Origin: a virus
Taxonomy: Duplodnaviria; Heunggongvirae; Uroviricota; Caudoviricetes
Length of the DNA: 64,000 nt
Direction: 5' to 3' (one strand)
Virus record (IMG/VR): IMGVR_UViG_2778260992_000001
Program-made: the position numbers and the translations under genes
Shown here: piece by piece, positions 4,711 to 55,628 of the stretch
Layout of the letters: each line of letters opens with the position of its first letter
Position numbering within the stretch: the first letter of the stretch is position 1
Notes under the pieces: model-generated
What the model was told of the DNA's origin: nothing
Database searches by the model: none
The model's input: the letters and a program-made list of their open reading frames with translations, nothing else

Positions 4711-4805
4711 ATAAAACAGCCTTAATGATAAGTAACCACTTACGATAGTTAATGGTATATTTATATAAGAAGTTGAACGCTCATTAGAGAACAAAGGAAA
4801 AACGC

Positions 4806-6041
4806 ATGACGACTACTGCACTGCAAAATGAAAAAAATCATTCTGATTACCTTGTTTGCAAGTGGTGCGGAAAATCATTTCACTATTTTAAGTCCCATGT
4901 AGCCAATGGTAATTGCGAGGGCATTCCTGAGTCAGTAAAAGATGCCGATCCTGACACCGTACTGAAAATGTACACAACACAGTTTCCAGATGAGCCAACG
5001 CTATCGAAAAAGGCACTTGATGCAATTCAAGCTAAACGTGCCGAGCAAAAAAGCGAAATGGCCAAATCATCTGGCGTGACCAGTAGCCCAGGCTACACAG
5101 GCACAGTTGAGTACAAGACAGATCTGGTCGCAGCTCACGAACTGCTAAATGTAACGGTGAAAGAACTCGGAACAAAACGTGGGACGCCGCTCATGGTTAG
5201 CGTCAACGTCAATACGCCGTTTCCAGAGTTCGTTCCAGAAGTGAAGAAGGGATACGTATATGGCGACTTCGAACTGATCAAAGACATTTTCATGATGCTT
5301 GAACTTGGCATACCTGGCTATTTGTGGGGTCATGCAGGAACAGGCAAATCTTCATTGCCTACACAACTATGTGCTTTGCTCAATCGTCCGTTAATCCGTG
5401 CCCAACATACAGCATCAATGGAAGAGGCTCATGTTACGGGACAAATTCTGGCGCGTGATGGCTCTACGTATTTCGAGCCTGGCTTGCTTGCGCTCGCAAT
5501 GAAGCATGGCTGGGTTTACCTCGCGGATGAATACGACTTTGCGTTTCCACAGATTCTTGGCGTGTATCAGCCAGTGCTGGAAGGTGAAGCGTTGGTCATC
5601 AAAGAGGCGACTCCAGAATGGCGTCGCATTACTCCGCATGAACGGTTTGCTTTCATTGGCACTGGCAACACGAACGGATCTGGTGATGAAACCGGCTTGT
5701 ACCAGGGTACAAACATCCAGAACGCCGCGAACTTTTCGCGTTTTGGCATCGTTTCGAATGTGAAATACATGAGCAAAGAGGCAGAGATCAACATGTTGAT
5801 AAATGCCGGTATCGTGGATGAATACGCAGAAAAGATGGTTAAGTTTGCCGGTATCGTTCGCGATGGATACGAAGAACACCTTATCAGTCAGCCAATTGGC
5901 CCTCGTGAACTTTTGTTGTCGGCCAAGATTGGAATGATGCGAGGCGACTTTGTGACAGGTATTGAGCGTTCTTTCATTAACAAACTCCCTTCAGCTTCTG
6001 CGCAAGCGGCACGTGAAGTTGTTCAAAAAATATTTGGTTAA
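4806..6041 (+). CDS. CobS-like / MoxR-family AAA+ ATPase
   Basis: Walker A GHAGTGKS, Walker B-like VYLADEYD; partner of the vWA protein. Confidence 0.7.
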   Translation: MTTTALQNEKNHSDYLVCKWCGKSFHYFKSHVANGNCEGIPESVKDADPDTVLKMYTTQFPDEPTLSKKALDAIQAKRAEQKSEMAKSSGVTSSPGYTGTVEYKTDLVAAHELLNVTVKELGTKRGTPLMVSVNVNTPFPEFVPEVKKGYVYGDFELIKDIFMMLELGIPGYLWGHAGTGKSSLPTQLCALLNRPLIRAQHTASMEEAHVTGQILARDGSTYFEPGLLALAMKHGWVYLADEYDFAFPQILGVYQPVLEGEALVIKEATPEWRRITPHERFAFIGTGNTNGSGDETGLYQGTNIQNAANFSRFGIVSNVKYMSKEAEINMLINAGIVDEYAEKMVKFAGIVRDGYEEHLISQPIGPRELLLSAKIGMMRGDFVTGIERSFINKLPSASAQAAREVVQKIFG

Positions 6042-6221
6042 TCGTGCGTAAAGGATGTTTCGGCTCTCTTATCGCTGCTTCTGAAACTGGTAAGGCTTGT
6101 CTGGTGTGTCCAGACAAGCCCGATTGTCACCAATCAGCAAAAGAAGTTGCGATTTCGATGCATGGGAAGTTCGTAGGCTTCCCAAATGACAAAATCAAAA
6201 AAACCAGAAAGGTAAAAACAC

Positions 6222-9200
6222 ATGAAGGCACTGATGGTTCGAACTGACTTCTCACTTGGGGAGTCGGCTCTTAAAGCAGAAAACGCGGTGAAGATTGCCA
6301 GAGAAGCTGGCTACACCGCTGTAATTTCAGCAGATAGCATGAATATTGCGAGTGTTATTCCACTACAACGTGCCGCTGGTGACGACATGGCGGTTATTTG
6401 TGGTGTGAAACTAAACATCGTTGATGATCCCACATACGAGCACCGGGCTAAACTTGTTAAAGAATCTAAGGGATGTATGGAATCATTAGAGCGAGGACGT
6501 AACTACTCGTTTACCGCTCTAATTAAAAATGAGCAAGGATATCGCGACATCTGCGAACTAATGACGGTGGCCAACACACGAGAACAGTTCTACTTTGTAC
6601 CGCGTCTCTCGCTCGAACAGTTGGTTTCTACATATGCCAAAGGCAACATCATCCTGCTCACTTCCGACATCGGTAGCGTGTTCCAACGCAACGATTTTGC
6701 AAAAATCATAAGCACACTGATTACAGCGGGTGGAAAAGACAACTTCTATAGTGTGGTTTATCCGCACCCTACCCCATTCTACGACCAGATTAACGTCCGG
6801 GCGATGAAAGTCGCCAGCGCACTGAAAATAGAGCCAGTAGCGTTCTATCCCGCTTATTACGAATCGATCGACGATGCAGACATTAAAGACATTGCGCACA
6901 TGGTTATGAACAACATCAAAATCGACCAGCCGCATCGTCTGCGTATCCCCCACCAGCGAGATAACGCCGTCAATGGTCGCCGCCATCTCCTTGAGGCGCT
7001 TAAAGCCTTCTCCGTTCGCATGGATGTGCCGGTAACAGCTGCAATGGCCTCAACAACGCAGGATACCATTATCGATGCCTGCACATGGCGCTGGCATGAA
7101 TTGCCACCAGCACTGCCAAAGATGGCAGACGACGAGCCTGCAACGCTGATGAAACTGGCCGTTGCTGGGCTGCGTAAACGTCTTACCACAAAAGAGTTTG
7201 GCTACACACCACCGGCTTCTGAGAACAGGATTTATGTTGAACGGCTTAAGTACGAAATGGACACGCTTACTCGCCTGGGATTTTGTGGTTACTTCCTGAT
7301 GGTACGCGATCTGATGAATCACAGCCGTGAAGCTGGCATTCCTGTCGGGCCTGGTCGTGGCTCCTCCGCTGGCTCTCTGGTGGCATGGTGCATAGGTATA
7401 ACCAACGTCGATCCTATCCGTCACGGTCTTCTGTTTGAACGTTTCATCAACCCTGAGCGTCTCGACTTGCCGGATGCGGATTTGGACTTCAGCCAGGCAC
7501 GTCGCCATGAAGTGATCGAGTATCTGAATGAACGCTACGGCGAAGATTACGTTGCGGGTATTCCGAACTTCACATATCTGGGCGCAGCCTCTGCACTACG
7601 TGACACCGCTCGTATTTATGGTGTGGAGTCCGCAGATATGGCGGTATCAAAAGAACTGAAGAACGTCGAGGATGATAGCCTTCCACTGGAGGAGCTGCGC
7701 GAACAACTGGCAAGTCTCGACAAATACGCGACAAAATACCCTGATGCATTCAATGCAGCCTGCAAGTTACAAAGCCTTATGCGTGGCTTTGGTAGACATG
7801 CGGCAGGGATGATCGTAGCAGGTGTTCCTCTGACAGAACGTACACCGGTTGAGCGCCGTGGTGACGCGCGTTGTATCGCATTTGACAAGCGTTACTGCGA
7901 GGCTATGGGCCTAATTAAGCTGGACGTGCTTGGCCTGGCAACTCTCGATTTGCTCGATAGTGCAAAACGCTACATTAAAGAGAACACAGGTGAAGATATC
8001 AATCTTGATGCCATATCTCTTGAAGATCGCAAGGTGCTGGATGGTTTTGCTGCTGGGTACACTCAAGGTGTTTTCCAGCTTGAATCAGGCCCAATGCGCA
8101 AGCTGCTTAAAGATTTAGGTGGTGGAATTGAGCCAATGAGCTTTAAAACGGTCGTCGCTACGACTGCGCTCTTCCGGCCGGGGCCAATTCAGTCAGGCAT
8201 GTTGGATGACTATGTTTCTGTAGCCAAAGGCTTTATGACGCCGGAATCATTACACCCCGTTCTTGATGAGCTTACCGCAGAAACCAACGGTGTGATTCTC
8301 TATCAGGAGCAGACGATGAACGCGACCCGATTGCTTGCCGGCTTCACAATGGCTGAAGCTGACGGCGTTCGTAAAGCGATCGGCAAAAAAGATATGGAAA
8401 AAATGAAGAGCATGGGCGAGAAGTTCATCGTTCAGGCTCAAGCTGGCTGGATAGACGTTGAGCTGGAAGATGGCACTACACAGCGCATTCACCGTGCGGA
8501 ACATTTTAAATGCGAAGACGGAACTCTGAAAACTGTCGAAGAGGCACTTGAGCACGGCGCAAAACTACCTATAAACGCAGTACGCGTGACAGCGTCACAC
8601 CCAGGGCTATCAGAGATGAAAGCGAAGGAGATCTGGACCGCATTCGAAAAAAATGGTGCCTACCAGTTCAACAAATCACACTCTGTTGCTTACTCCTTAA
8701 TCAGTTATCAATCTATGTGGTTGAAAACTCATTATCCCGCAGAGTTTTTCGCTGCTGCTCTTACTATTCTTGGTGAAGATAAACACCAGGGGCTGGTTAA
8801 AGATGCGCTGACCTATGGCATTCGCGTATTGCCACCAGACGTTAATGTGTCATCTAACCGAATAGAGATCCGCACGCTTGAAGATGGCAGCCAGGTGCTG
8901 TTAGCGCCTTTCTCTGCTGTGAAGGGGTGTTCAGAGAATGGCTGCCAAGCCATCATGAGAGCGCGTGAAAAAGTTGGAGGTAAATTCGAGTCACTGGCGC
9001 AATTCGAAGAAGCTGTCGAGAAACGTGCCTGTAATAGTCGAGTACGCGAATCACTGCAAAAAGTAGGGGCGTTTGCATCCATTGAGCCTGGTAGTCTGCC
9101 AGCAACTGATCCAGAGCGTCTCCGCGACCAAGCAGAATTGATGGGAAACCTTGTCATAGACGCAGTTAAAGCCTCACGTCCGTTTGAAATGAACCCCAAA

Positions 9201-9918: not shown

Positions 9919-10767
9919 TCAATATTTAACAAATATTTCATTAAGCCTAGGGTTAACTTGGTCGTATTTATCTATGTCGTCTTTTAAAACTGAATGACAT
10001 TTGACACCAATTTCAAATGCTATCAATATCGAATTTATATATTGATTATAGCATTCAATCAAAGATTTAATATCAGATGATAGTTGTATCAACCGTGGAT
10101 TGACTCTAAGAGCACTAATAACCTTATCATACTTGTTAAGCAACCCATTCAATTCATTAGCAAAATTATATGGATAACCATTTTGGTATGTATTTTCATC
10201 ATCAGCAGGACCTAAATAATCACCAATGCACTTAAGTTTATTCTTAATGAATACAGCATCTTCAGTGGCATCTATATCATTTTTCGTTAAGAAAAGTTCT
10301 ATCCACTTGTTCTTGTCCGACTCTTTCAAAAGGTTATTTTCTTTATCAAAAGTAATACAATAGCTATCACTTTTTTTCTCGTTGGAAATACTAATCATTT
10401 CCGCCAACTCGTCTTTACCTAAATGTTTCCAAAATATTACAGGGAGACCGTTGTCGTTTAGAAAAACGCGAACAATGACAATCGGATCATTAATACTTTG
10501 CCAATAAATTAAATTTTTAATAGGTACAGAAACTCTTAGTGAATCATCGATTTTTTTACTTGTTGTTTTAACTTGAACTCCAATAAACATACCTGTTGAA
10601 TGACAGTTGTCATCATAAATCTCAACCTGAGCATCCAACCCCATGTCAATATCAAGAATTCGGCAAGGCCATACAAATTTATTTGAAATCCAATATGCGA
10701 AATAAAACTCACCAGCATTTCCGTTAGCAACTCTTTCGATATATCTCATGCCCTGATCGTTTGCCAC
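9919..10767 (-). CDS. hypothetical protein, putative PD-(D/E)xK-type nuclease (DUF4365-like N-terminus)
   Basis: 282 aa; markedly AT-rich and on the opposite strand to all neighbours; N-terminal GNAGEF ... DIDMGLD ... QVEI ... VQVK pattern recalls DUF4365 from memory. Confidence 0.4.
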   Translation of the reverse strand: MANDQGMRYIERVANGNAGEFYFAYWISNKFVWPCRILDIDMGLDAQVEIYDDNCHSTGMFIGVQVKTTSKKIDDSLRVSVPIKNLIYWQSINDPIVIVRVFLNDNGLPVIFWKHLGKDELAEMISISNEKKSDSYCITFDKENNLLKESDKNKWIELFLTKNDIDATEDAVFIKNKLKCIGDYLGPADDENTYQNGYPYNFANELNGLLNKYDKVISALRVNPRLIQLSSDIKSLIECYNQYINSILIAFEIGVKCHSVLKDDIDKYDQVNPRLNEIFVKY

Positions 10768-40079: not shown

Positions 40080-41765
40080 ATGAATACAGCCCTTTCCATC
40101 ATCGACGATGCCAACTCAAACACTGCTATCGATTATCGTCAGGAAATGAACGTCATCCACGAAATTGTGGCCGAGTGCGAGAAGGAGATCGCCTTCATGT
40201 ATCAGGTTCACGACTTCGTTTATGGAGACGAACGCCACAACATGATTAATCGCCTGCTGCAACTGAACCACCGACCAGATGAAGAACGCTCACGTTTGAA
40301 TCGAGCTTGGCTGGATAAAGTCGATCTGGAATGGGTGAAACAGAATATTTGGGCCGAGTACTGGAGGAAGGTCACGGATATGACTAACGTTCTGCTGATC
40401 ATGCCAGCTTCCCGTCGCGACGAGTGGCGTGAGCAGTTTATCGAGGGTAAGCAGGAAGTCATCAAAACTGACAGAACCGGCTATCAGATGAAGGTAAAAG
40501 AGTTCGTTGGTGTACCGGAGTTCAAAGCAGAAACGGTCATACCCACGATGCTTAATTTGCTGAATGACAGGCACAAATATCTCTCTGAGCGCGTGTATGG
40601 CTTGTTTAAGGCGCTGAGTCCTGCGCACAAGACAAATAAGACAAACGGTTTCAGCGAACGTCTGATAATCGCTGACTGCATTTCTGATTTCTGGCGGGAC
40701 AGCGTTAGCGTGAACTATCGCAAAGAGGACTACATCGACGATCTGCGTGTCTTGCTTCATTTCTTCGCGCACAAAGAATTTATTACCATCAACCGCACTG
40801 CTGAGGTGCTATCAGCTGCGTATAGGGCAAACGACTGCCAGACCGGTGACTGGATGAACGTCGATGGAAATCTGATGCGCGTGAAGATGTTCAAGAACGG
40901 CAACGTTCACTTTGAAATACATCCTGACGTGGCCTGGAAGTTGAATGAGGTGCTGGCTTACAGTATGCCTGCTGCAATCCCCGCGCCATGCCGAACTGCG
41001 CCAAAAACACGGGCACCAAAGCAGTTCGGTTTAATCCAGAAGACGATCTCCGTGCCGGTTCGCACTGCGCTTCGTGACGGGCGATTGAGCAAAGACAAAG
41101 GCGTATGGTACTTCTCTGATTCAGCTCTCCAGAAGTCGCAGGTGGAAGAGCTTGAGCGCACACTGAGCTTCATTGGCGGCGTGCAGGAGAAAAAGCACTG
41201 GCAGTTCCCGTATGAGATCGGCCATACGCTAAATACGATTGTGGCTACCGGATTAATACCGGATACAAAATCACACCAGTTCTACCCTACCCCACGCTTG
41301 ATTGCTGAGTACGTTGCCAGAGCCACTGAATTGAAGCCTGGTGAGAAGCTGCTGGAGCCTCAAGCCGGACGTGGGGATCTTCTGGCCTATATTAACGCCG
41401 ATCTGGAAGATGTTACCTGCATAGAAATCGCACCTCTCTTCGCTGATATCCTGCGTGGAAAAGGGTATACGAACACGATTTGCTGCGACTTCATAAAGTG
41501 GTCTGAGGACAACGCAGGTTATCAGTTCGACAAAATCGTTATGAACCCGCCGTACTCGCTTGGTCGTCATAGAGAGCACACGATGGCTGCGCTGGGGCAT
41601 CTGAAAGTCGGCGGGCGTCTTGTAGCAGTATTGCCGGGCACTGCGCCAATACTGGACTGGATGACGATGGATAATTACGTTTATGCCAGAGGGAAGTCGT
41701 TTACCAACGAGTTTGAAGATACCGGGATCACAGTCAGCGTATACGTTTTCAAACGCGTTAAATGA
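40080..41765 (+). CDS. N6-adenine/N4-cytosine-type DNA methyltransferase with about 400-aa N-terminal domain of unknown function
   Basis: C-terminal motifs FYPTPRLIAEYV, LEPQAGRGDL (AdoMet) and NPPY (catalytic); large uncharacterised N-terminus. Confidence 0.6.
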   Translation: MNTALSIIDDANSNTAIDYRQEMNVIHEIVAECEKEIAFMYQVHDFVYGDERHNMINRLLQLNHRPDEERSRLNRAWLDKVDLEWVKQNIWAEYWRKVTDMTNVLLIMPASRRDEWREQFIEGKQEVIKTDRTGYQMKVKEFVGVPEFKAETVIPTMLNLLNDRHKYLSERVYGLFKALSPAHKTNKTNGFSERLIIADCISDFWRDSVSVNYRKEDYIDDLRVLLHFFAHKEFITINRTAEVLSAAYRANDCQTGDWMNVDGNLMRVKMFKNGNVHFEIHPDVAWKLNEVLAYSMPAAIPAPCRTAPKTRAPKQFGLIQKTISVPVRTALRDGRLSKDKGVWYFSDSALQKSQVEELERTLSFIGGVQEKKHWQFPYEIGHTLNTIVATGLIPDTKSHQFYPTPRLIAEYVARATELKPGEKLLEPQAGRGDLLAYINADLEDVTCIEIAPLFADILRGKGYTNTICCDFIKWSEDNAGYQFDKIVMNPPYSLGRHREHTMAALGHLKVGGRLVAVLPGTAPILDWMTMDNYVYARGKSFTNEFEDTGITVSVYVFKRVK

Positions 41766-41826: not shown

Positions 41827-42531
41827 ATGAGCAACCTCCAGTTAGAGCATTTTAACGTCACAGGCCGTTCTGATTTTCCTTTCAAGTTTACATTGAAAGG
41901 TTATGCAGAGGATGCGGTAGGCCAGATCATTATTGATAAAGGCATCGTTAAGTTTGAGGGGGATTTTGATGAATCCGCGAAAACATTCATAGACTTCGTT
42001 GCCAAACGTTGGAGCGAGCAATGGAAAAACCTGGAAAAGCGCGCCAATGAGTTTGATCGGTTCATGGATGCAATGGATACAGCAAAAGAGGCTCTTGATG
42101 CCGGGACTCCGTTAGATCTGGAGTCACTTTTCAACGGCGAAGTGGCCTCTGCGATGTTTGCCACCATGTTCGCGGGTGAGTTCGTCCGCAGCGGTGCCAA
42201 AAACTACCTTGAGCTGGATTACAACGTCCCTGCAATTGGCGATTTCGTCGTTACCATCCAACGCAAAGAAGGTAAGACGCCAGGTGAACGCGTCGCAGAG
42301 CTTGAGGCCGTTGTGGATCAGCGTAACGGAGAGTGTGACCGTTTGATCAACGAGCTTCATGCACTTCGGGAAGAAAGAATATGTGCGGGTAGCAAGACAC
42401 GTAATGCAGCGGATATCTACTTCCAGTTAGTTGAGGAATGCCAGATTCCACCAGGTGGCTCTCTTGTCGATTACGTCAGACATTTAATGGCGGAAGTTAA
42501 CTCCAGCCATAAAGATGGTGAGGTGCGCTGA
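41827..42531 (+). CDS. hypothetical protein
   Basis: 234-aa ORF; conserved initiation context. Confidence 0.5.
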   Translation: MSNLQLEHFNVTGRSDFPFKFTLKGYAEDAVGQIIIDKGIVKFEGDFDESAKTFIDFVAKRWSEQWKNLEKRANEFDRFMDAMDTAKEALDAGTPLDLESLFNGEVASAMFATMFAGEFVRSGAKNYLELDYNVPAIGDFVVTIQRKEGKTPGERVAELEAVVDQRNGECDRLINELHALREERICAGSKTRNAADIYFQLVEECQIPPGGSLVDYVRHLMAEVNSSHKDGEVR

Positions 42532-42911
42532 TGTTTGGCATTGACGCACAGCGTATAGCCGCTTTTGCAAAAAGCCCTCTTGATAATCCCTTGTCTCGTA
42601 GTGAGCAAATGGAGCTGGCAAGGCTTTTTCTTCACATTCAAAAACAGGCAGACATTTTCAATAACATGCCTAATCAACCTATTCTGGATGGTCACATCCA
42701 GATGGTCATTAACAGTCATGAGAAAGGCTGGGCTGCAATCGTCCCCTGCACAATTACATACAAGTTGGCGAAAGAGGTTCAAGAGTTTCGAAAAGCCAGT
42801 GTCGAATCGGAGTCTACCAAAGCCGCAATAAACACTCTTATTCGCATGGGGTTCACATGGACCGGTGGAGCCTACTGGCAAGCACCTCACCCCATTTTAT
42901 CCGGCAATTAG
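42531..42911 (+). CDS. hypothetical protein
   Basis: 126-aa ORF overlapping previous stop. Confidence 0.45.
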   Translation: MFGIDAQRIAAFAKSPLDNPLSRSEQMELARLFLHIQKQADIFNNMPNQPILDGHIQMVINSHEKGWAAIVPCTITYKLAKEVQEFRKASVESESTKAAINTLIRMGFTWTGGAYWQAPHPILSGN

Positions 42912-43030
42912 ACGCTACAAATCCTTCGGCATGAATAAATAAAGGCCATAAGTTGTGGCCTTAAATAAATTGTTTTCTACATTTTCTTATTTGTGAAAAT
43001 AACCACAACTAGAAAACAACGGAGTTAAGA

Positions 43031-43672
43031 ATGTCTAGTATTTCCGAAGCTCATATGTTCGCCGCTGGCGCTCATGGTGGCGTTGGTCAGAAAAGAAAAT
43101 ATACCGGCGAAGACTACATCAACCACCCGGTTGCTGTCCGAGAGATTGTTGCATTGCATGACGGAACCGTGGAGATGCAAATCGCGGCGCTTCTGCATGA
43201 TGTGGTCGAAGACACCCATGTAACCATAGAGATGGTTCGTGATCACTTCGGTGAGCGCGTAGCTGAAATGGTTCAGGCTCTGACCAACATTGCAAGGCCA
43301 GAAGACGGCAATCGAATACAGCGTTTCATCATCAATGTCCGGGAGCTGGAGCAAAATCTCGACATGCAGACGCGCATGATCAAGCTGGCTGACCTGCTCG
43401 ACAATACCTCTTCTATCGTGAGTCGCGATCCCGAGTTTTCAGCTGTCTACCTCGCAGAGAAAGAACTGATGCTGGACGTACTCTTTCACGGCAAAGAGAT
43501 TGGTGCCAATGCTGATGTTGTCGAGTACATGGAGAGGATAGGTATAGAACACCCGTTGCTATTAAGCGCAATGGCGAAAGTCACTGAAGGTATTGCGCTT
43601 CTGAAACCGGTACACATCAAACGTTATGAAAAACACAAATCGCTGATCTGGAGCGCGTGGGAGGCTGCATGA
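43031..43672 (+). CDS. HD-domain (p)ppGpp hydrolase (SpoT/Mesh1-like small alarmone hydrolase)
   Basis: YINHPVAVREIVAL ... AALLHDVVEDT ... FGERVAEMVQALT matches the SpoT-type HD hydrolase signature. Confidence 0.75.
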   Translation: MSSISEAHMFAAGAHGGVGQKRKYTGEDYINHPVAVREIVALHDGTVEMQIAALLHDVVEDTHVTIEMVRDHFGERVAEMVQALTNIARPEDGNRIQRFIINVRELEQNLDMQTRMIKLADLLDNTSSIVSRDPEFSAVYLAEKELMLDVLFHGKEIGANADVVEYMERIGIEHPLLLSAMAKVTEGIALLKPVHIKRYEKHKSLIWSAWEAA

Positions 43673-44211
43673 AGGTCGAAAAAATAGATGTTCTTTCCTT
43701 TGTGCTGACGGATCTGGAACGCCTCGATCCGGTTCGAGTGATGATTGAAAACTACGAACCTGGTAAGGGAAGAATCACCATCACCTGCTACGGAAAAGCG
43801 TGGACTGCGGCTTGGTTTGCTATGGGCGGTGATGATGTGCAGACGTTCATTAAGCGAGTTAGCAACGATTATCTAATCGACAATTTCGACCCTCAACTGC
43901 TAAGCACGGTCGACGATGACAACGATGCAAATCTGCTTTTCGTAAAGTCAGAAATCATAAAGTTACGAAGAGAGAGAGAAATAGACGCCGTACTGGCTCG
44001 CGAAATGTGGGACGAGGCGGAAAACGCCGATGACGTAAAAGAAAGCTGCTGTTGTTTCGGCGTCGGTAACAAACTGCTGAATCTCTTTGGTGATGATCCG
44101 TGGTATGCCGACTGGCCAACGGTACCAAACCCGAAATACCAGTATCTGGAACGCATTGTGAACGCGGTACGTGAAGGGCTGAAAGAGTTAGATAAGTTAG
44201 AGGCATCGTAA
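43669..44211 (+). CDS. hypothetical protein
   Basis: Start ATG overlaps upstream stop. Confidence 0.45.
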   Translation: MKVEKIDVLSFVLTDLERLDPVRVMIENYEPGKGRITITCYGKAWTAAWFAMGGDDVQTFIKRVSNDYLIDNFDPQLLSTVDDDNDANLLFVKSEIIKLRREREIDAVLAREMWDEAENADDVKESCCCFGVGNKLLNLFGDDPWYADWPTVPNPKYQYLERIVNAVREGLKELDKLEAS

Positions 44212-46720: not shown

Positions 46721-46825
46721 GCAATAGTACGATAAAGAGGCCCCATGCTCTTGATGGGGCCTGTAGCAACTAGCGTTATGGACGCTGGTTTACGTACTCA
46801 ATGATCGCTTTGATAATCGCGAACA

Positions 46826-47127
46826 TCGGCGGCACGATTTTGAACAGTAAGTTAACCATAACAGGCCTCACTTAGTTTTATCGCGCCTAGCTGCAAATAC
46901 CTTTGGGCTTGCCTTTGCAGTTGCAATATCTGTAGTCGCCAGATACTTACGGCACGATTTCGAGTTAAGGTAAGGTTTTAGAGTCACCAAAAACCTGGAC
47001 TTAAATCTTCTTTGAGAACAACGATGTTTGGTAAATGGTCATTATTACCTAGCATGACGGCTCAACGTTTCTTGATGAATCCAGTACATTCGGTTAATCT
47101 TAGCTCAGTCGCCAGATACTTATGGCT
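46826..47127. repeat. interleaved direct repeats (GTCGCCAGATACTTAYGGC x2; GGCACGATTTYGA x2), parS-like
   Basis: Contain TCGCCA hexamers and CGATTTCGA/CGATTTTGA, resembling P1 parS box B and box A as remembered. Confidence 0.35.
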
Positions 47128-47157
47128 CAGGAACAGAGGCGCAAACTCTGTTTCCTT

Positions 47158-47190
47158 TTAAAAAGCCCAGCCTAGTCAACTGGGCTTTTT
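47158..47190. terminator. bidirectional rho-independent terminator
   Basis: AAAAAGCCCAG-cctagtcaa-CTGGGCTTTTT. Confidence 0.7.
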
Positions 47191-47485
47191 AATGTCCGTT
47201 TTTAACCAAATGTACCCACAATACCGCAACATCAGTGTCTTGCGAATTAAGATAGGATTTATAGAGACTATGTGCAAGTGCATAACTTTGTGGATAACTC
47301 GTAAAGGAAAAAGTGGTTTCCGCGGACATTAGTTCAGACAAGGAGTCTGGGAAAGTCAATGGGAAGTAAAAATTTGTTAAAAATAACGTTTGTTGGAATT
47401 GTATATATTTATGCCTTTCAATAGTTAGCATCTTATTAACATCTTTTTTAAGAGATAGAGTTCAAAAATATATAGCTTCAACATA

Positions 47486-47505
47486 TACTGTATGCATATA
47501 CAGTA
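47486..47505. promoter_or_regulatory. LexA (SOS) box
   Basis: TACTGTATGCATATACAGTA, perfect CTGT-N8-ACAG palindrome 17 bp upstream of the umuD-like start. Confidence 0.75.
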
Positions 47506-47521
47506 TTAAGAGGCGAGTATT

Positions 47522-47948: not shown

Positions 47949-49049
47949 TCACACTGCGCGGAATGCGATTTCGCCAGGTATTACTTCACCTTGCCAATAC
48001 ATTTGGGCAGCAACGCGATCTGCGAGGTCACGATAAATAGCCGTAAATTCGCTATCTGGACGACTAATAACGGTTGGTGTTCCGTTATCCAGATCTTCAC
48101 GAAGAGAGATATGAAGTGGCATTTGGCCTAACAACTGCGTGTTGTATTTCTCGGCCAGTTTCTGTGCGCCACCGGTGCCAAAAATTGGCTCGTGATGACC
48201 GCAGTTACTGCAAATATGCACACTCATGTTTTCAACGATACCCAGTACCGGCACTTCGACTTTTTCGAACATCACAATGCCTTTCTTCGCATCGATCAGC
48301 GCGATGTCTTGCGGCGTAGTTACCACAACCGCACCAGTTACAGGAATGTTCTGCGCCAGCGTCAACTGAATATCACCAGTGCCCGGCGGCATATCGAGAA
48401 CGAGATAGTCCAGATCAGGCCACAGTGTTTCCTGCAACATCTGCATCAGCGCCTTGCTGGCCATCGGTCCACGCCACACCATTGCATTGTCGTCGGTGAC
48501 CAGATAACCAATAGAGTTGGTTGCCAGGCCATGAGACATGATAGGTGCCATGTGAGTACCGTCAGGTGAGGTTGGACGTTGGTTTTCCGAGCCCAGCATG
48601 GTTGGAATTGATGGACCATAGATATCGGCATCCAAAATACCAACTTTCGCACCTTCAGCAGCCAACGCCAGTGCCAGGTTTACCGCCGTGGAGGATTTAC
48701 CCACGCCGCCCTTGCCTGAGCTGACGGCGATAATGTTCTTCACGCCATTAATGCCTGGTTGGTTTTTGACGCGCTTAAGCGTGGCAATGTTGTACGACAG
48801 CTTCCAGTCAATAGCCTTTGCGCCAGTGATACGGAGCAGATCACCACTACATTGCTCTTTCAGGTCTTCAAAAGGCTTATTCCACACGAAAGGCATGATT
48901 AGTTCGACATGCAGTGTGTCATCCATCAACGCAACATGGTGTAACGCTTTAAGCGTAGTCAGGTTGTGTTTCAGGGTTGGGTGCTGAAAATTAGCCAGCG
49001 TACCGGCTACCATTGCTCTCAGGGCATCCGGCGATTTGGACTCGCTCAT
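47949..49049 (-). CDS. mrp: iron-sulfur cluster carrier ATPase Mrp/ApbC (host-type)
   Basis: Near-identical to enterobacterial Mrp over its length as remembered (ALRAMVAGTLANFQHPTLKHNL ... SSGKGGVGKSS ... CSNCGHHEPIFG). Confidence 0.9.
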   Translation of the reverse strand: MSESKSPDALRAMVAGTLANFQHPTLKHNLTTLKALHHVALMDDTLHVELIMPFVWNKPFEDLKEQCSGDLLRITGAKAIDWKLSYNIATLKRVKNQPGINGVKNIIAVSSGKGGVGKSSTAVNLALALAAEGAKVGILDADIYGPSIPTMLGSENQRPTSPDGTHMAPIMSHGLATNSIGYLVTDDNAMVWRGPMASKALMQMLQETLWPDLDYLVLDMPPGTGDIQLTLAQNIPVTGAVVVTTPQDIALIDAKKGIVMFEKVEVPVLGIVENMSVHICSNCGHHEPIFGTGGAQKLAEKYNTQLLGQMPLHISLREDLDNGTPTVISRPDSEFTAIYRDLADRVAAQMYWQGEVIPGEIAFRAV

Positions 49050-49206: not shown

Positions 49207-51240
49207 ATGACCCAAGTCGCGAAGAAAATTCTGGTGACGTGCGCGCTGCCGTACGCTAACGGCTCAATCCACCTCGGCCATATGCTGGAGCACATCCAGG
49301 CTGATGTCTGGGTTCGTTACCAGCGAATGCGCGGCCACGAGGTTAATTTCATCTGTGCCGACGATGCCCACGGTACGCCGATCATGCTGAAAGCACAGCA
49401 GCTTGGTATCACACCGGAACAGATGATTGGCGAAATGAGTCAGGAACACCAGACTGATTTTGCAGGCTTTAACATCAGCTATGACAACTATCACTCGACG
49501 CACAGCGAAGAGAACCGTCAGTTGTCCGAGCTTATCTATACTCGCCTGAAAGAGAACGGTTTTATTAAAAACCGCACCATCTCTCAGCTGTACGATCCGG
49601 AAAAAGGCATGTTCCTGCCGGACCGTTTTGTGAAAGGCACCTGCCCGAAATGTAAAGCACCGGATCAATACGGCGATAACTGTGAAGTCTGCGGCGCTAC
49701 TTACAGCCCGACTGAACTGATCGAGCCGAAATCGGTAGTTTCTGGTGCTACGCCGGTAATGCGTGATTCCGAACACTTCTTCTTTGATCTGCCTTCTTTC
49801 AGCGAAATGTTGCAGGCATGGACCCGCAGCGGTGCGTTGCAGGAGCAGGTGGCAAACAAAATGCAGGAGTGGTTTGAATCTGGCCTGCAACAGTGGGATA
49901 TCTCCCGCGATGCGCCGTACTTCGGTTTTGAAATTCCGAACGCACCGGGCAAATATTTCTACGTCTGGCTGGACGCGCCGATTGGCTACATGGGTTCCTT
50001 CAAGAATCTGTGCGACAAACGCGGCGACACTACCAGCTTCGACGAATACTGGAAGAAAGACTCCACCGCCGAGCTGTACCACTTCATCGGTAAAGATATC
50101 GTTTACTTCCACAGCCTGTTCTGGCCTGCCATGCTGGAAGGCAGCAATTTCCGCAAGCCGACCAACCTGTTTGTTCATGGCTATGTGACGGTGAACGGTG
50201 CGAAGATGTCCAAGTCTCGCGGCACCTTTATTAAAGCCAGCACCTGGCTGAATCATTTTGACGCTGACAGCCTGCGTTACTACTACACTGCGAAACTCTC
50301 TTCGCGCATTGATGATATCGATCTCAACCTGGAGGATTTCGTTCAGCGCGTGAATGCCGATATCGTGAACAAAGTGGTTAACCTGGCCTCCCGTAATGCA
50401 GGCTTTATCAACAAGCGTTTTGACGGCGTGCTGGCAAGCGAACTGGCTGACCCGCAACTGTACAAAACCTTTACTGATGCTGCTGAAGTGATTGGTGAAG
50501 CATGGGAAAGCCGCGAATTTGGTAAAGCGATTCGTGAAATCATGGCGCTGGCTGATCTGGCTAACCGCTATGTCGATGAACAGGCTCCGTGGGTGGTGGC
50601 GAAGCAGGAAGGGCGCGATGCCGATCTGCAGGCGATTTGCTCTATGGGCATTAACCTGTTCCGCGTGCTGATGACGTACCTGAAACCGGTACTGCCGAAA
50701 CTGACTGAACGTGCAGAAGCATTCCTGAATACAGAACTGACCTGGGATGGTATCCAGCAACCGCTGCTGGGCCATAAAGTGAATCCGTTCAAGGCACTGT
50801 ATAACCGCATCGACATGAAGCAGGTTGAAGCACTGGTGGAAGCATCCAAAGAGGAAGTAAAAGCCGCTGCCGCGCCAGTAACTGGCCCACTGGCAGATGA
50901 TCCGATTCAGGAAACCATCACCTTTGACGACTTCGCCAAAGTTGACCTGCGCGTGGCTCTGATTGAAAACGCGGAGTTTGTCGAAGGTTCTGACAAACTG
51001 CTTCGCCTGACGCTGGATCTCGGTGGCGAAAAACGTAATGTCTTCTCCGGCATTCGTTCCGCTTATCCAGATCCACAGGCACTGATTGGTCGTCACACCA
51101 TTATGGTGGCCAACCTGGCTCCGCGTAAAATGCGCTTCGGTATCTCCGAAGGCATGGTGATGGCTGCTGGCCCCGGCGGGAAAGATATCTTCCTGTTAAG
51201 CCCGGATGCTGGTGCTAAACCAGGCCACCAGGTTAAGTAA
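49207..51240 (+). CDS. metG: methionyl-tRNA synthetase (host-type)
   Basis: [26 protein letters not shown] (HIGH) and KMSKS motifs; essentially the E. coli-type MetG sequence; start set at MTQVAKK, 43 codons inside the track ORF. Confidence 0.95.
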
Positions 51241-51323: not shown

Positions 51324-51338
51324 AAAACAATTTGTTTT
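51324..51338. promoter_or_regulatory. class-1 palindromic element AAAACAATTTGTTTT (first of a tandem pair)
   Basis: First element-type motif after the metG stop; second copy GAAAACAACTTGTTTT at about 51374-51389. Confidence 0.5.
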
Positions 51339-51401
51339 CTGCCTTTTGTTGATTGAGATAATAAACCACATAAGAAAACAACTTGTTTTGGAGTGGTTTA
51401 A

Positions 51402-52645: not shown

Positions 52646-52759
52646 CGGTTGCAACTTATTGATAATGGCGGTCACAATTTGATTCTTTTCTATAAGAATC
52701 CGTTGATCGCCACTACTCCCCTTCCATACCTGCAATCATACCCTTAAATATCAATAGGT

Positions 52760-53560
52760 TATGGTTGTTTATACAAATAAGAAAACAACTAAATAACAGA
52801 TCAACGAAACGTCAACGCTTTCACCCGATTTGGTCTAAAAAATTGACGTTTTCACACATCACTTCTTATACCCGTAACTCTACGCAGCAGACAGCGCCAC
52901 AGCGTCCAATTTTCACCACAGACGACCCAACACACTACCAACAAAAACACACGCTCAAAATCGCTCCCGTTGCGTTACGCAACCATATAAACAACTTATT
53001 TTCAGGCATAACAAAACAACTAAATAACACACATGCCATTCCCAAAAACAACCAACCTCTTTATGGCAGGCTACCGAAAAGACCCACCTCTTCTCCCCAG
53101 GCTACCGGACAACCAACCTAACTTTCACAGGCAATCCGAAAACATTCATACGCGCGATACCCACGACACGCCATTACCCAAACAGCGAAGAAATACCAGA
53201 CTCACTGAAACCCCAACGAAGCCTGTTACCGCAAGGATTCTCTCAATCCCAAAAGACACGAAACAGAACAATCACGGGAAACGCCATTACCCAATACACG
53301 AATAACTACAAAAGCCTTTCAGGCACTCCAGACAAACAACTCAAACACAATAACGAAAGCAATCGCCCACCTGCCATTACTCCATACACGGAGAAGAACA
53401 ATCACCAAAACGACGAGAACACCCCATAGAAGAACCACCGCAAAACGAACGAAACCACATACACCGACAGAGAAAACAACACACCCAATTCACCAACAGA
53501 AATAGTCGCCGTATAGGACATTCTGGAAGGAGTGAGCATTAACGCCTATAGAGAGGTTGA
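52760..53560 (+). repeat. strongly strand-asymmetric A+C-rich, G/T-poor tract with degenerate internal repeats (candidate ncRNA or Rho-loading region)
   Basis: By eye about three-quarters or more A+C on the + strand over about 0.75 kb; repeated GCCATTACCCAA and AAAACAACTAAATAACA units; putative -35 TTGACG (52843-52848) and -10-like at 52866-52871; track ORFs here are low-complexity. Confidence 0.5.
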
Positions 53561-53618
53561 GACAGATAAAACACAACATGTATAGCGAAGAAGCCAGGTA
53601 TGTATAAGTGGGGATGGA

Positions 53619-53645
53619 AGGAGGGGTGTCGCCTCCTTTTTCGTA
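53619..53645 (+). terminator. rho-independent terminator closing the A+C-rich tract
   Basis: AGGAGG-ggtgtcg-CCTCCT followed by TTTTCGTATTT. Confidence 0.6.
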
Positions 53646-53699
53646 TTTATTCAACTCCTGATTTTATCCCCCGTAACACCCCTACGGTCAGCCTTCGGT

Positions 53700-53840
53700 C
53701 CATACAGGGGAAAGGCTGCATCCCGCTACAGAAACGGCTGGGTTGCCTTTGGGAACGGCTGGAGGTTTTCAGGGAAACGGTCGAGTTGCCTGTGTGGATT
53801 TCGGGAAAAGGCTCGATGCCGGTTCAGGAACGGTGGCGTA
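53700..53840. repeat. cluster of GRAAACGGC repeats (copy 1)
   Basis: GGGAAAGGCTG, AGAAACGGCTGG, GGGAACGGCTGG, GGGAAACGGTCG, GGGAAAAGGCTCG, GGAACGGTGG within about 140 bp. Confidence 0.55.
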
Positions 53841-54167
53841 CCGGTATAGCGAGAGGGAGAGTTGCGGCTACCCACCTGTAATGTGCGGGAAGAAGAGAGG
53901 CGCTCACGTAGGCGGACTTGCTTACCGCTGGATTCCCTCTGAATGCCCAGCTACAGCGTAATTGTGCCAGACAGCCAACGGGTCACAATCGATTTCAGTA
54001 GGTTTTTGGGGAGAGGATTACTCTGCCACCAGCCACTTTCGGCCACTAAATCAGAATAATGTAAAAAGTGTACTCGGTACTGAACCTGAAAACTCACTGC
54101 CAAAACCACATTCACCGGAACAAAATCCTTTTTCGCCTGTGCGTTATTGCGATAATAACACCATCAA

Positions 54168-54182
54168 GAAAACATGTTGTTT
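54168..54182. promoter_or_regulatory. class-1 element GAAAACATGTTGTTT with extended -10-like TGCGATAAT upstream
   Basis: CGATAAT-ACACCA-CAAGAAAACA block conserved with the 56.3 and 56.8 kb copies. Confidence 0.5.
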
Positions 54183-54194
54183 AAGGATTGCTTT

Positions 54195-54524
54195 ATGTTT
54201 ACAAATATCGACATCAACCAAATCAAGAAATTAACTCAAAAAGAGTTTGATCAGTTTTATGAGTTAGAAGGTTGGTCTTCCACTCTGATCAATTCAAGAT
54301 GGGTGCTGGAACTGATGACTCGTGATGACGCACCTGCTTTGATGATCAGCGACCTGGGTGAAGATGCTGACTTTATGGATATGAGCGAATTTTGTGTGGA
54401 CACATACAACCGCAGCCAGAAGTACTACTTCACATGCGATAGCGAAAATGACGTGATTTCTAAGGTCTATCTTCACCTCGTCCAGCATTGGGACGTTCAG
54501 GAGTTTCTTGAAGTATTCGAGTAA
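54195..54524 (+). CDS. hypothetical small acidic protein
   Basis: 109 aa, Asp/Glu-rich; start at ATG after AAGGA RBS. Confidence 0.5.
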   Translation: MFTNIDINQIKKLTQKEFDQFYELEGWSSTLINSRWVLELMTRDDAPALMISDLGEDADFMDMSEFCVDTYNRSQKYYFTCDSENDVISKVYLHLVQHWDVQEFLEVFE

Positions 54525-55557: not shown

Positions 55558-55570
55558 AACAATTTGTTTT
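55558..55570. promoter_or_regulatory. class-1 palindromic element AACAATTTGTTTT
   Basis: Same AACAATTTGTTTTCTGCC block as at 51.3 kb. Confidence 0.5.
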
Positions 55571-55628
55571 CTGCCTTATCTGATTTGTGAAAATGATTTC
55601 ACTGAAGCAACTTAATAAGGAAACCATC

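Follow-up and report, generated by a model that had tools for sequence, protein, structure and literature searches.

A PaSpo-type small alarmone hydrolase in an accessory cassette of an SSU5-like Escherichia coli phage-plasmid, with a possible role in counter-defence

The gene described here lies at 43031-43672 of a 64,000-nucleotide stretch of viral DNA (IMG/VR record IMGVR_UViG_2778260992_000001, Caudoviricetes; the whole stretch is hereafter the window). Judged by sequence similarity far above chance, its product is a single-domain hydrolase of the RelA/SpoT homologue (RSH) family, in other words a small alarmone hydrolase (SAH). An initial annotation had marked the open reading frame (ORF) as an element-encoded, stand-alone HD-domain protein bearing HDVVEDT, a signature of (p)ppGpp hydrolases. 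The ORF is real, with exactly the coordinates given there, and the motif is borne out. HD_4 and HD are the sole domains of the protein, which contains no synthetase, TGS or ACT domain and so does stand alone. RefSeq lists it as WP_021533175.1, labelled merely 'HD domain-containing protein'. That the gene is carried by a mobile element is equally clear, as the 2.2 kb compared around it are 100% identical to plasmid pG749_2 of E. coli G749 (NZ_CP014490.1, 109.9 kb), which encodes terminase, portal, major capsid and tail proteins, RepB, ParB, dnaE, nrdAB, thyA, dihydrofolate reductase (DHFR), metG and apbC. Because phage structural genes and RepB/ParB occur together on it, we regard pG749_2 as an SSU5-like phage-plasmid. 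Among named phages, the hydrolase gene has its best match in Salmonella phage SSU5.

Profile searches, which the initial annotation had proposed as a check on the family, all place the protein among the RSH hydrolases. Pfam HD_4 (PF13328) matches residues 8-135 at E=1.2e-18 (67.8 bits against a gathering cut-off of 27.2), the Pfam HD profile matches at E=6e-6, and PHROG 990, 'metal-dependent phosphohydrolase', reaches E=2.9e-55. The N-terminal hydrolase part of TIGR00691 (spoT_relA) is matched at E=1.4e-24, with a score under the full-length cut-off, as is to be expected of a single domain. Searching the PDB with the single sequence recovered A. baumannii SpoT, mycobacterial and streptococcal Rel, human and fly MESH1 and bacterial SAHs at E=1e-13 to 1e-5; with a family profile, SpoT, Rel, MESH1 and SAHs were found at E=7e-25 to 1e-7. 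An AlphaFold2 (AF2) model built from the family alignment is all-helical, with a predicted local distance difference test score (pLDDT) of 96.6 and a predicted template-modelling (TM) score of 0.92, and its all-alpha HD fold superimposes on solved RSH hydrolases. The 50 best PDB matches returned by Foldseek are without exception MESH1, bacterial SAH, Rel, SpoT or RelA (41 of the 50 at E<=1e-3; TM up to 0.77).

The residues that define an RSH hydrolase active site are all present, namely the metal tetrad H32/H56/D57/D121, the E60-D61 dyad, R22 and N125. Across an alignment of the hydrolase with 34 homologues of 43-88% identity, R22, K23, Y24, H32, H56, D57, E60, D61, K118, D121 and N125 are invariant in all 35 sequences, and a HMMER alignment to human MESH1 (3nr1) puts the invariant residues on MESH1 active-site positions. 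We take these positions to be the Mn2+ ligands H35, H61, D62 and D122, the catalytic pair E65/D66, R24 and N126, in the numbering that Sun et al. are said to have used in 2010. By analogy, the metal of the hydrolase would be held by His32, His56, Asp57 and Asp121, a water molecule would be activated by Glu60 and Asp61, and the nucleotide would be positioned by Arg22, Lys23, Tyr24, Lys118 and Asn125.

Comparison with solved structures shows what the protein shares with its relatives and what sets it apart. The best structural match is metazoan MESH1 (PDB 3nr1, 5vxa and 9chy; 3nqw from Drosophila), with Foldseek E-values of ~4e-7 to 1e-6, a TM score against the AF2 model of 0.63 by query length and 0.75 by target length, and an identical active-site constellation. 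MESH1 is nevertheless eukaryotic, ~180 amino acids (aa) long and just 25-28% identical to the hydrolase, which differs from it by a clade-specific insertion of ~17 residues and a C-terminal tail (~155-213). Both features belong to the SSU5-like clade and are missing from phage SAHs of ~175 aa. Bacterial chromosomal SAHs (P. aeruginosa 6yvc/6z3o, C. glutamicum RelH 7qod and Leptospira 7qoe), together with 7smg, have the same all-alpha HD fold at target-normalised TM scores of 0.7-0.77 and 20-27% identity; they are housekeeping genes, whereas the hydrolase is mobile-element cargo. The (p)ppApp hydrolase 7smg shows the weakest similarity, E=2e-6 compared with 1e-13 for SpoT, Rel and MESH1, scores from which a substrate preference cannot be read. 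The best sequence matches are the hydrolase domains of long RSHs (SpoT 7qpr; Rel 1vj7/5xnx/6s2t), at ~1e-13 with the single sequence and 7e-25 with the profile, and these have the HDxxED, R, K and N motifs in common with our protein. Long RSHs additionally carry synthetase, TGS and ACT domains; the hydrolase does without them and therefore without their regulation.

The closest characterized relative is the SAH of phage SSU5 (SSU5_099, YP_006906731.1). It has the same length of 213 aa and aligns without gaps at 87% identity and 93% similarity, and its catalytic residues are all identical. SSU5 carries only this one homologue, it belongs to the same element family, and in both elements the hydrolase gene is followed by the same gene, here called ORF180, with overlapping start and stop codons. 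The identity, the single homologue and the common neighbour lead us to regard the two genes as syntenic orthologs, although the accessory genes around them differ. Jimmy et al. (2020, PNAS; PMC7229694) classed the SSU5 protein as a PaSpo-type SAH, and we place the window hydrolase in the PaSpo subfamily by this full-length orthology alone. Of the 27 substitutions between the two proteins, 18 lie within the C-terminal 64 residues. The ratio of nonsynonymous to synonymous substitution rates (dN/dS) between the window and SSU5 alleles is 0.20 over the whole gene, 0.11 over residues 1-149 and 0.33 over residues 150-213, which argues that the hydrolase is under purifying selection with a faster-evolving C-terminus. 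P0001, the representative of its cluster and 99% identical to it, stands for 705 member sequences.

PaSpo^SSU5 neutralises all five validated toxic small alarmone synthetases (toxSAS), CapRel, PhRel, PhRel2, FaRel2 and FaRel (PMC7229694, Table 1). Leaky expression suffices to detoxify FaRel2 (bioRxiv 10.1101/2024.07.05.602228), the protein enabled expression of CapRel^SJ46 (PMC9712102), and it has since become a routine means of detoxifying FaRel2, PhRel2 and CapRel^SJ46 in protein production. The discussion of Jimmy et al. proposed that incoming phages might evade alarmone-mediated defence by encoding alarmone hydrolases (PMC7229694). Two further single-domain RSH hydrolases, PbcSpo of Salmonella phage PVP-SE1 and the type IV antitoxin ATfaRel of Cellulomonas marina, likewise neutralise all tested toxSAS (PMC7229694); here the SAH subfamily (PbcSpo) is not that of our hydrolase. 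Kurata et al. found that FaRel2, PhRel, PhRel2 and CapRel make no alarmones and instead pyrophosphorylate tRNA at its 3'-CCA end, that two SAHs, MESH1 and ATfaRel, undo the modification in vitro and restore aminoacylation, and that MESH1 also rescues toxSAS toxicity (bioRxiv 10.1101/2021.04.30.441581). Because four of the five tested toxSAS classes act on tRNA CCA ends, the relevant substrate of the hydrolase may be tRNA rather than an alarmone. The window itself contains no tRNA genes or known RNA elements that would bear on tRNA-targeting toxSAS, and Rfam gave no match.

ATfaRel forms an operon with its own toxSAS, and we therefore considered an equivalent arrangement for the window hydrolase. 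No RSH synthetase domain occurs in the genes flanking it, and no RelA/SpoT synthetase is found among the annotations of the whole 109.9-kb pG749_2. An antitoxin of a toxSAS encoded in cis was rejected on these grounds, and the hydrolase would instead be an orphan counter-defence gene. PADLOC returned nothing for it, as would be expected of a protein that is not itself a defence protein.

The hydrolase and ORF180 together form a discrete accessory cassette (Table 1). In blastn comparisons, 98% homology to the SSU5-like phages Cyrano and PhiR41_1 stops at 43005 and restarts at 44211, a 1.2-kb block being missing from those phages. SSU5 shares 42932-44185 with the window at 87%; the upstream flank is ~76% identical, and no homology of SSU5 to the window was found by blastn downstream of the cassette. 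The region is highly mosaic.

Table 1. Coordinates, in the window, of the hydrolase gene and of the features belonging to its cassette and leader
Feature	Coordinates	Strand	Description
Small alarmone hydrolase gene (PaSpo-type SAH)	43031..43672	+	213 aa; ATG start; stop codon ends at 43672
Shine-Dalgarno GGAG of the hydrolase	43021..43024	+	6 nt 5' of the ATG; read directly from the sequence
HDVVEDT, residues 56-62	43196..43216	+	metal-binding His56-Asp57 and catalytic Glu60-Asp61 of the RSH HDxxED motif
Two-gene accessory cassette, hydrolase and ORF180	43006..44210	+	in the window and SSU5; missing from Cyrano and PhiR41_1
ORF180	43669..44211	+	180 aa; precomputed Pfam PF26211; 'phiTE_072 family protein' in newer RefSeq
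GC-rich hairpin AAGGCCATAAGTTGTGGCCTT	42942..42962		separates the 126-aa gene upstream from the hydrolase leader; terminator-like
31-bp promoter/operator-like motif TTGTTTTCTACATTTTCTTATTTGTGAAAAT	42970..43000	+	ends in extended -10-like TGnGAAAAT; 61 bp upstream of the hydrolase ATG

The start codon of ORF180 overlaps the stop codon of the hydrolase (ATGA), so that the two are translationally coupled, and ORF180 has its own GGAGG. An obligate partnership was rejected all the same: the two genes are co-inherited in those E. coli and Salmonella loci that are closest to the window, yet ORF180 follows the hydrolase in just 3 of the 81 hydrolase-encoding loci searched, and it is widespread alone, in phage EC.W1-9, many myoviruses of ~150 kb and chromosomal prophages. 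Beyond PF26211 and the 'phiTE_072 family' name given in Table 1, searches of ORF180 against Pfam, NCBIfam and PADLOC profiles gave no match, and its AF2 model (pLDDT 88) has no fold match in the PDB. PHROG 3451 (287 aa) matches the entire ORF180 and, separately, residues 10-101 of a 234-aa ORF two genes upstream of the hydrolase (41827-42531), and this N-terminal stretch of ~100 aa appears, from such matches, to be a shuffled module common to 'Ea22/Ead-like' accessory proteins. Another neighbour is the DUF4942 DNA methyltransferase, encoded two genes upstream of the hydrolase in the window (40080-41765). In more distant SSU5-like elements, those of the Klebsiella type, a hydrolase of 52-59% identity sits directly 5' of the methyltransferase gene and ORF180 is missing (loci L007-L011, on IMG/VR contigs of ~72-113 kb, with the hydrolase at 4001-~4630 and the methyltransferase at ~4755-6430). 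In both arrangements the hydrolase and methyltransferase genes are close, with their order differing.

The leader holds two elements ahead of the gene. The RNA fold of 42905-43045 has a z-score of -3.8, and the GC hairpin is kept in Cyrano, PhiR41_1 and SSU5, so that it belongs to the conserved backbone even where the cassette is missing. Comparison of loci, the sole route by which it was found, also revealed a 31-bp motif, TTGTTTTCTNCNTTNTNTNATNTGNGANAAT, that occurs three times in the window with none expected by chance (42970-43000, 51332-51362 and 55564-55594, all on the + strand). Each has a + strand gene 61-148 bp downstream of it and closes with an extended -10-like TGnGA(A/T)AAT, and the motif is found upstream of SSU5_099 and SSU5_104 and, in Cyrano and PhiR41_1, upstream of the Eae-like gene. 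It probably serves as a promoter or operator specific to the element, and the cassette would have been inserted directly behind it.

The hydrolase is widespread and at the same time variably present. Its relatives occur in 505 or more contigs of IMG/VR and in no fewer than 249 phage records of GenBank. Among PLSDB plasmids the allele was found on 144 and the backbone DUF4942 methyltransferase on 555 (Escherichia, 49 and 203; Enterobacter, 41 and 81; Salmonella, 39 and 47; Citrobacter, 14 and 24), the hydrolase counts excluding Klebsiella, where the allele is too diverged for megablast. Since just part of the SSU5-like plasmids carry a matching gene, we consider the hydrolase a variable accessory. 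The 5,426 complete E. coli genomes include 44 with the hydrolase, always plasmid-borne (plasmids of ~104-156 kb among the matches listed), and 14 with the CapRel^SJ46 gene, in each case on a plasmid of ~93-160 kb, as would fit P1-like phage-plasmids like SJ46. That both genes are confined to plasmids in E. coli points to a possible conflict of phage-plasmid against phage-plasmid. Zhang et al. (2022) described anti-phage CapRel in Salmonella phage SJ46, E. coli prophages, Enterobacter and Klebsiella (PMC9712102), and these are the same hosts as those of SSU5-like elements.

Taken together, the fold, the set of catalytic residues, the orthology, the purifying selection and the structure of the cassette described here, and the published neutralisation of toxSAS by the SSU5 ortholog, make it probable that the gene encodes an active, Mn2+-dependent PaSpo SAH, the E. 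coli phage-plasmid ortholog of PaSpo^SSU5, with counter-defence as its most likely use. The parts of this reading differ in strength. By analogy with its ortholog, the window allele is very likely a functional SAH equivalent to PaSpo^SSU5; that counter-defence is its main role we hold to be about an even chance. In the scheme that we propose, the hydrolase would be expressed as the first gene behind the repeated promoter-like motif, within an accessory 'ea-like' region. It would strip (p)ppGpp or (pp)pApp of the 3'-pyrophosphate and, to judge from other SAHs, perhaps also act in this way on the CCA end of toxSAS-modified tRNA. Once it had erased what toxSAS abortive-infection systems, CapRel for example, produce, the SSU5-like element could establish itself or replicate. 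The initial annotation had suggested that an element degrading alarmones could counteract the host stringent response or toxSAS-type abortive defences. Its toxSAS part has gained support from the family, the fold and the tested 87%-identical ortholog, while degradation of alarmones would be only part of the likely mechanism, as four of the five toxSAS modify tRNA.

Several observations weigh against this interpretation. The evidence for PaSpo^SSU5 comes from co-expression in E. coli rather than from infection, and we found in the literature no in-vitro substrate data for PaSpo itself, the tRNA repair assays having used MESH1 and ATfaRel. For infection-level tests of counter-defence by any phage SAH, the literature gave hypotheses only, and no papers on SSU5 phage-plasmids that mention ppGpp were found. 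The gene is dispensable, as only ~49 of ~203 Escherichia SSU5-like plasmids in PLSDB have a match and it is missing from Cyrano and PhiR41_1. Few complete E. coli genomes (0.26%) have the CapRel^SJ46 allele, a generic sigma-70 scan of the hydrolase leader gave no + strand promoter, and decayed or chimeric alleles (P0009-P0012, described below) occur in related phage-plasmids.

One could go further and suppose that the hydrolase and its coupled ORF180 form a promoter-proximal, horizontally exchanged counter-defence cassette, that the C-terminal extension (~155-213) adapts the hydrolase to pyrophosphorylated tRNA, and that the cassette serves conflicts between phage-plasmids, for example against the CapRel of P1-like phage-plasmids. 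In this extended form we find the proposal quite unlikely.

The most serious alternative is that the enzyme mainly serves to bring down (p)ppGpp in the host, which would blunt the stringent response and keep replication, transcription and translation going during lytic growth or plasmid maintenance. Among proteins of solved structure, those closest in sequence are the SpoT and Rel domains that hydrolyse (p)ppGpp, and the gene sits in the replication and nucleotide-metabolism half of the element, with dnaE, nrdAB, thyA, DHFR and metG. SAHs are found in many virulent and jumbo phages whose hosts have no documented toxSAS, and a preprint has reported the stringent response as a barrier to phage infection (bioRxiv 10.64898/2026.01.27.700999). 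On the other hand, the literature yielded no measured hydrolysis of (p)ppGpp by PaSpo, and the sole experimental phenotype of the ortholog is the neutralisation of toxSAS. The variable presence of the gene among otherwise similar elements also fits an accessory of an arms race better than core physiology. We therefore rate this as possible, and on balance unlikely, as the main role; suppression of the stringent response and counter-defence against toxSAS are compatible in the same enzyme and not mutually exclusive.

The hydrolase could instead protect the host on behalf of a resident plasmid-prophage, detoxifying (pp)pApp that is delivered by competitor bacteria (Tas1-like secreted RSH effectors) or made by the toxSAS of superinfecting elements, to the advantage of the lysogen. 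Neutralisation of the (pp)pApp producer FaRel by the SSU5 ortholog (PMC7229694) would suit such a role, secreted (p)ppApp synthetase toxins exist (PMC12691689), and stable plasmid maintenance through RepB and ParB makes constitutive expression in the lysogen conceivable. However, the (p)ppApp hydrolase 7smg is a far weaker match than Rel, SpoT and MESH1, and we regard host protection as very unlikely to be what the gene is for.

Highly improbable, in our estimate, is a phosphatase whose real substrate is another 2'/3'-phosphorylated nucleotide, as with metazoan MESH1, which acts on NADPH as well and binds 3'-phosphoadenosine-5'-phosphosulfate (PAPS), so that effects on alarmones and toxSAS would be incidental. 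The best structural matches are indeed MESH1-NADPH and MESH1-PAPS complexes, and evidence for MESH1 as an NADPH phosphatase has been noted (bioRxiv 10.1101/2021.04.30.441581). Yet the active-site residues common to Rel and SpoT are all kept, and the ortholog at leaky levels rescues five mechanistically distinct toxSAS, which requires removal of a 3'-pyrophosphate.

Decay of the gene is disfavoured. Related plasmids carry a 139-aa truncated hydrolase (P0011, on 139 contigs), a variant with D57G and H15Y and hence a mutated active site (P0009), and two chimeras, one with a P-loop N-terminus joined at 'EDT' (P0010) and one with an ea-like N-terminus joined at ~residue 76 (P0012), the latter of the same type as the ~100-aa module of Ea22/Ead-like proteins. 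The HD motif is missing from both chimeras, which suggests recurrent loss by deletion and recombination in a hotspot. That the window gene is itself a non-functional remnant or decaying pseudogene in this mosaic region is extremely unlikely and was rejected, given its full length, intact catalytic residues, dN/dS of 0.11-0.20 (0.1-0.2 in round figures), good Shine-Dalgarno sequence and 705-member cluster.

Counter-defence against toxSAS thus remains the use that we favour for the hydrolase, and neither the enzyme family nor the counter-defence idea is new, the two having been published for the orthologous SSU5 protein. Phage SAHs are published candidates for counter-defence against toxSAS-mediated abortive infection and possibly also for overriding the stringent response. 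Our analysis places close, selectively maintained orthologs of PaSpo^SSU5 on clinically common phage-plasmids of E. coli, Salmonella, Enterobacter and Citrobacter, where the gene acts like an accessory cassette that can be swapped; this is useful for annotation and offers natural pairs of elements that differ in having the gene. Minor additions, which refine the known picture and leave it unchanged, are the limits of the cassette, the repeated promoter-like motif, the presence and absence statistics, the selection estimates and the decayed alleles.

Other parts of the window deserve brief mention. Two stretches, ~52646-54210 (~1.5 kb) and ~46721-47521 (~0.8 kb), have no coding sequence in the PLSDB gene table, which is itself incomplete. 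Terminator-like hairpins without an Rfam match lie at 46738-46762 and 47169-47186, 5' of an S24 peptidase gene. Unusual cargo includes a full-length methionine--tRNA ligase (metG; 49207-51240, + strand) and an ApbC/Mrp-type Fe-S carrier (47949-49049, - strand) that is called MinD in phage Cyrano. Beside dnaE, on the strand opposite to its neighbours, lies a gene for a DUF4365 protein (9919-10767, - strand) that matches the PADLOC 'Aga_REase' models (restriction-endonuclease-like domain, Argonaute-associated proteins) at E=1.5e-13 and may be a defence or exclusion gene of the phage-plasmid.

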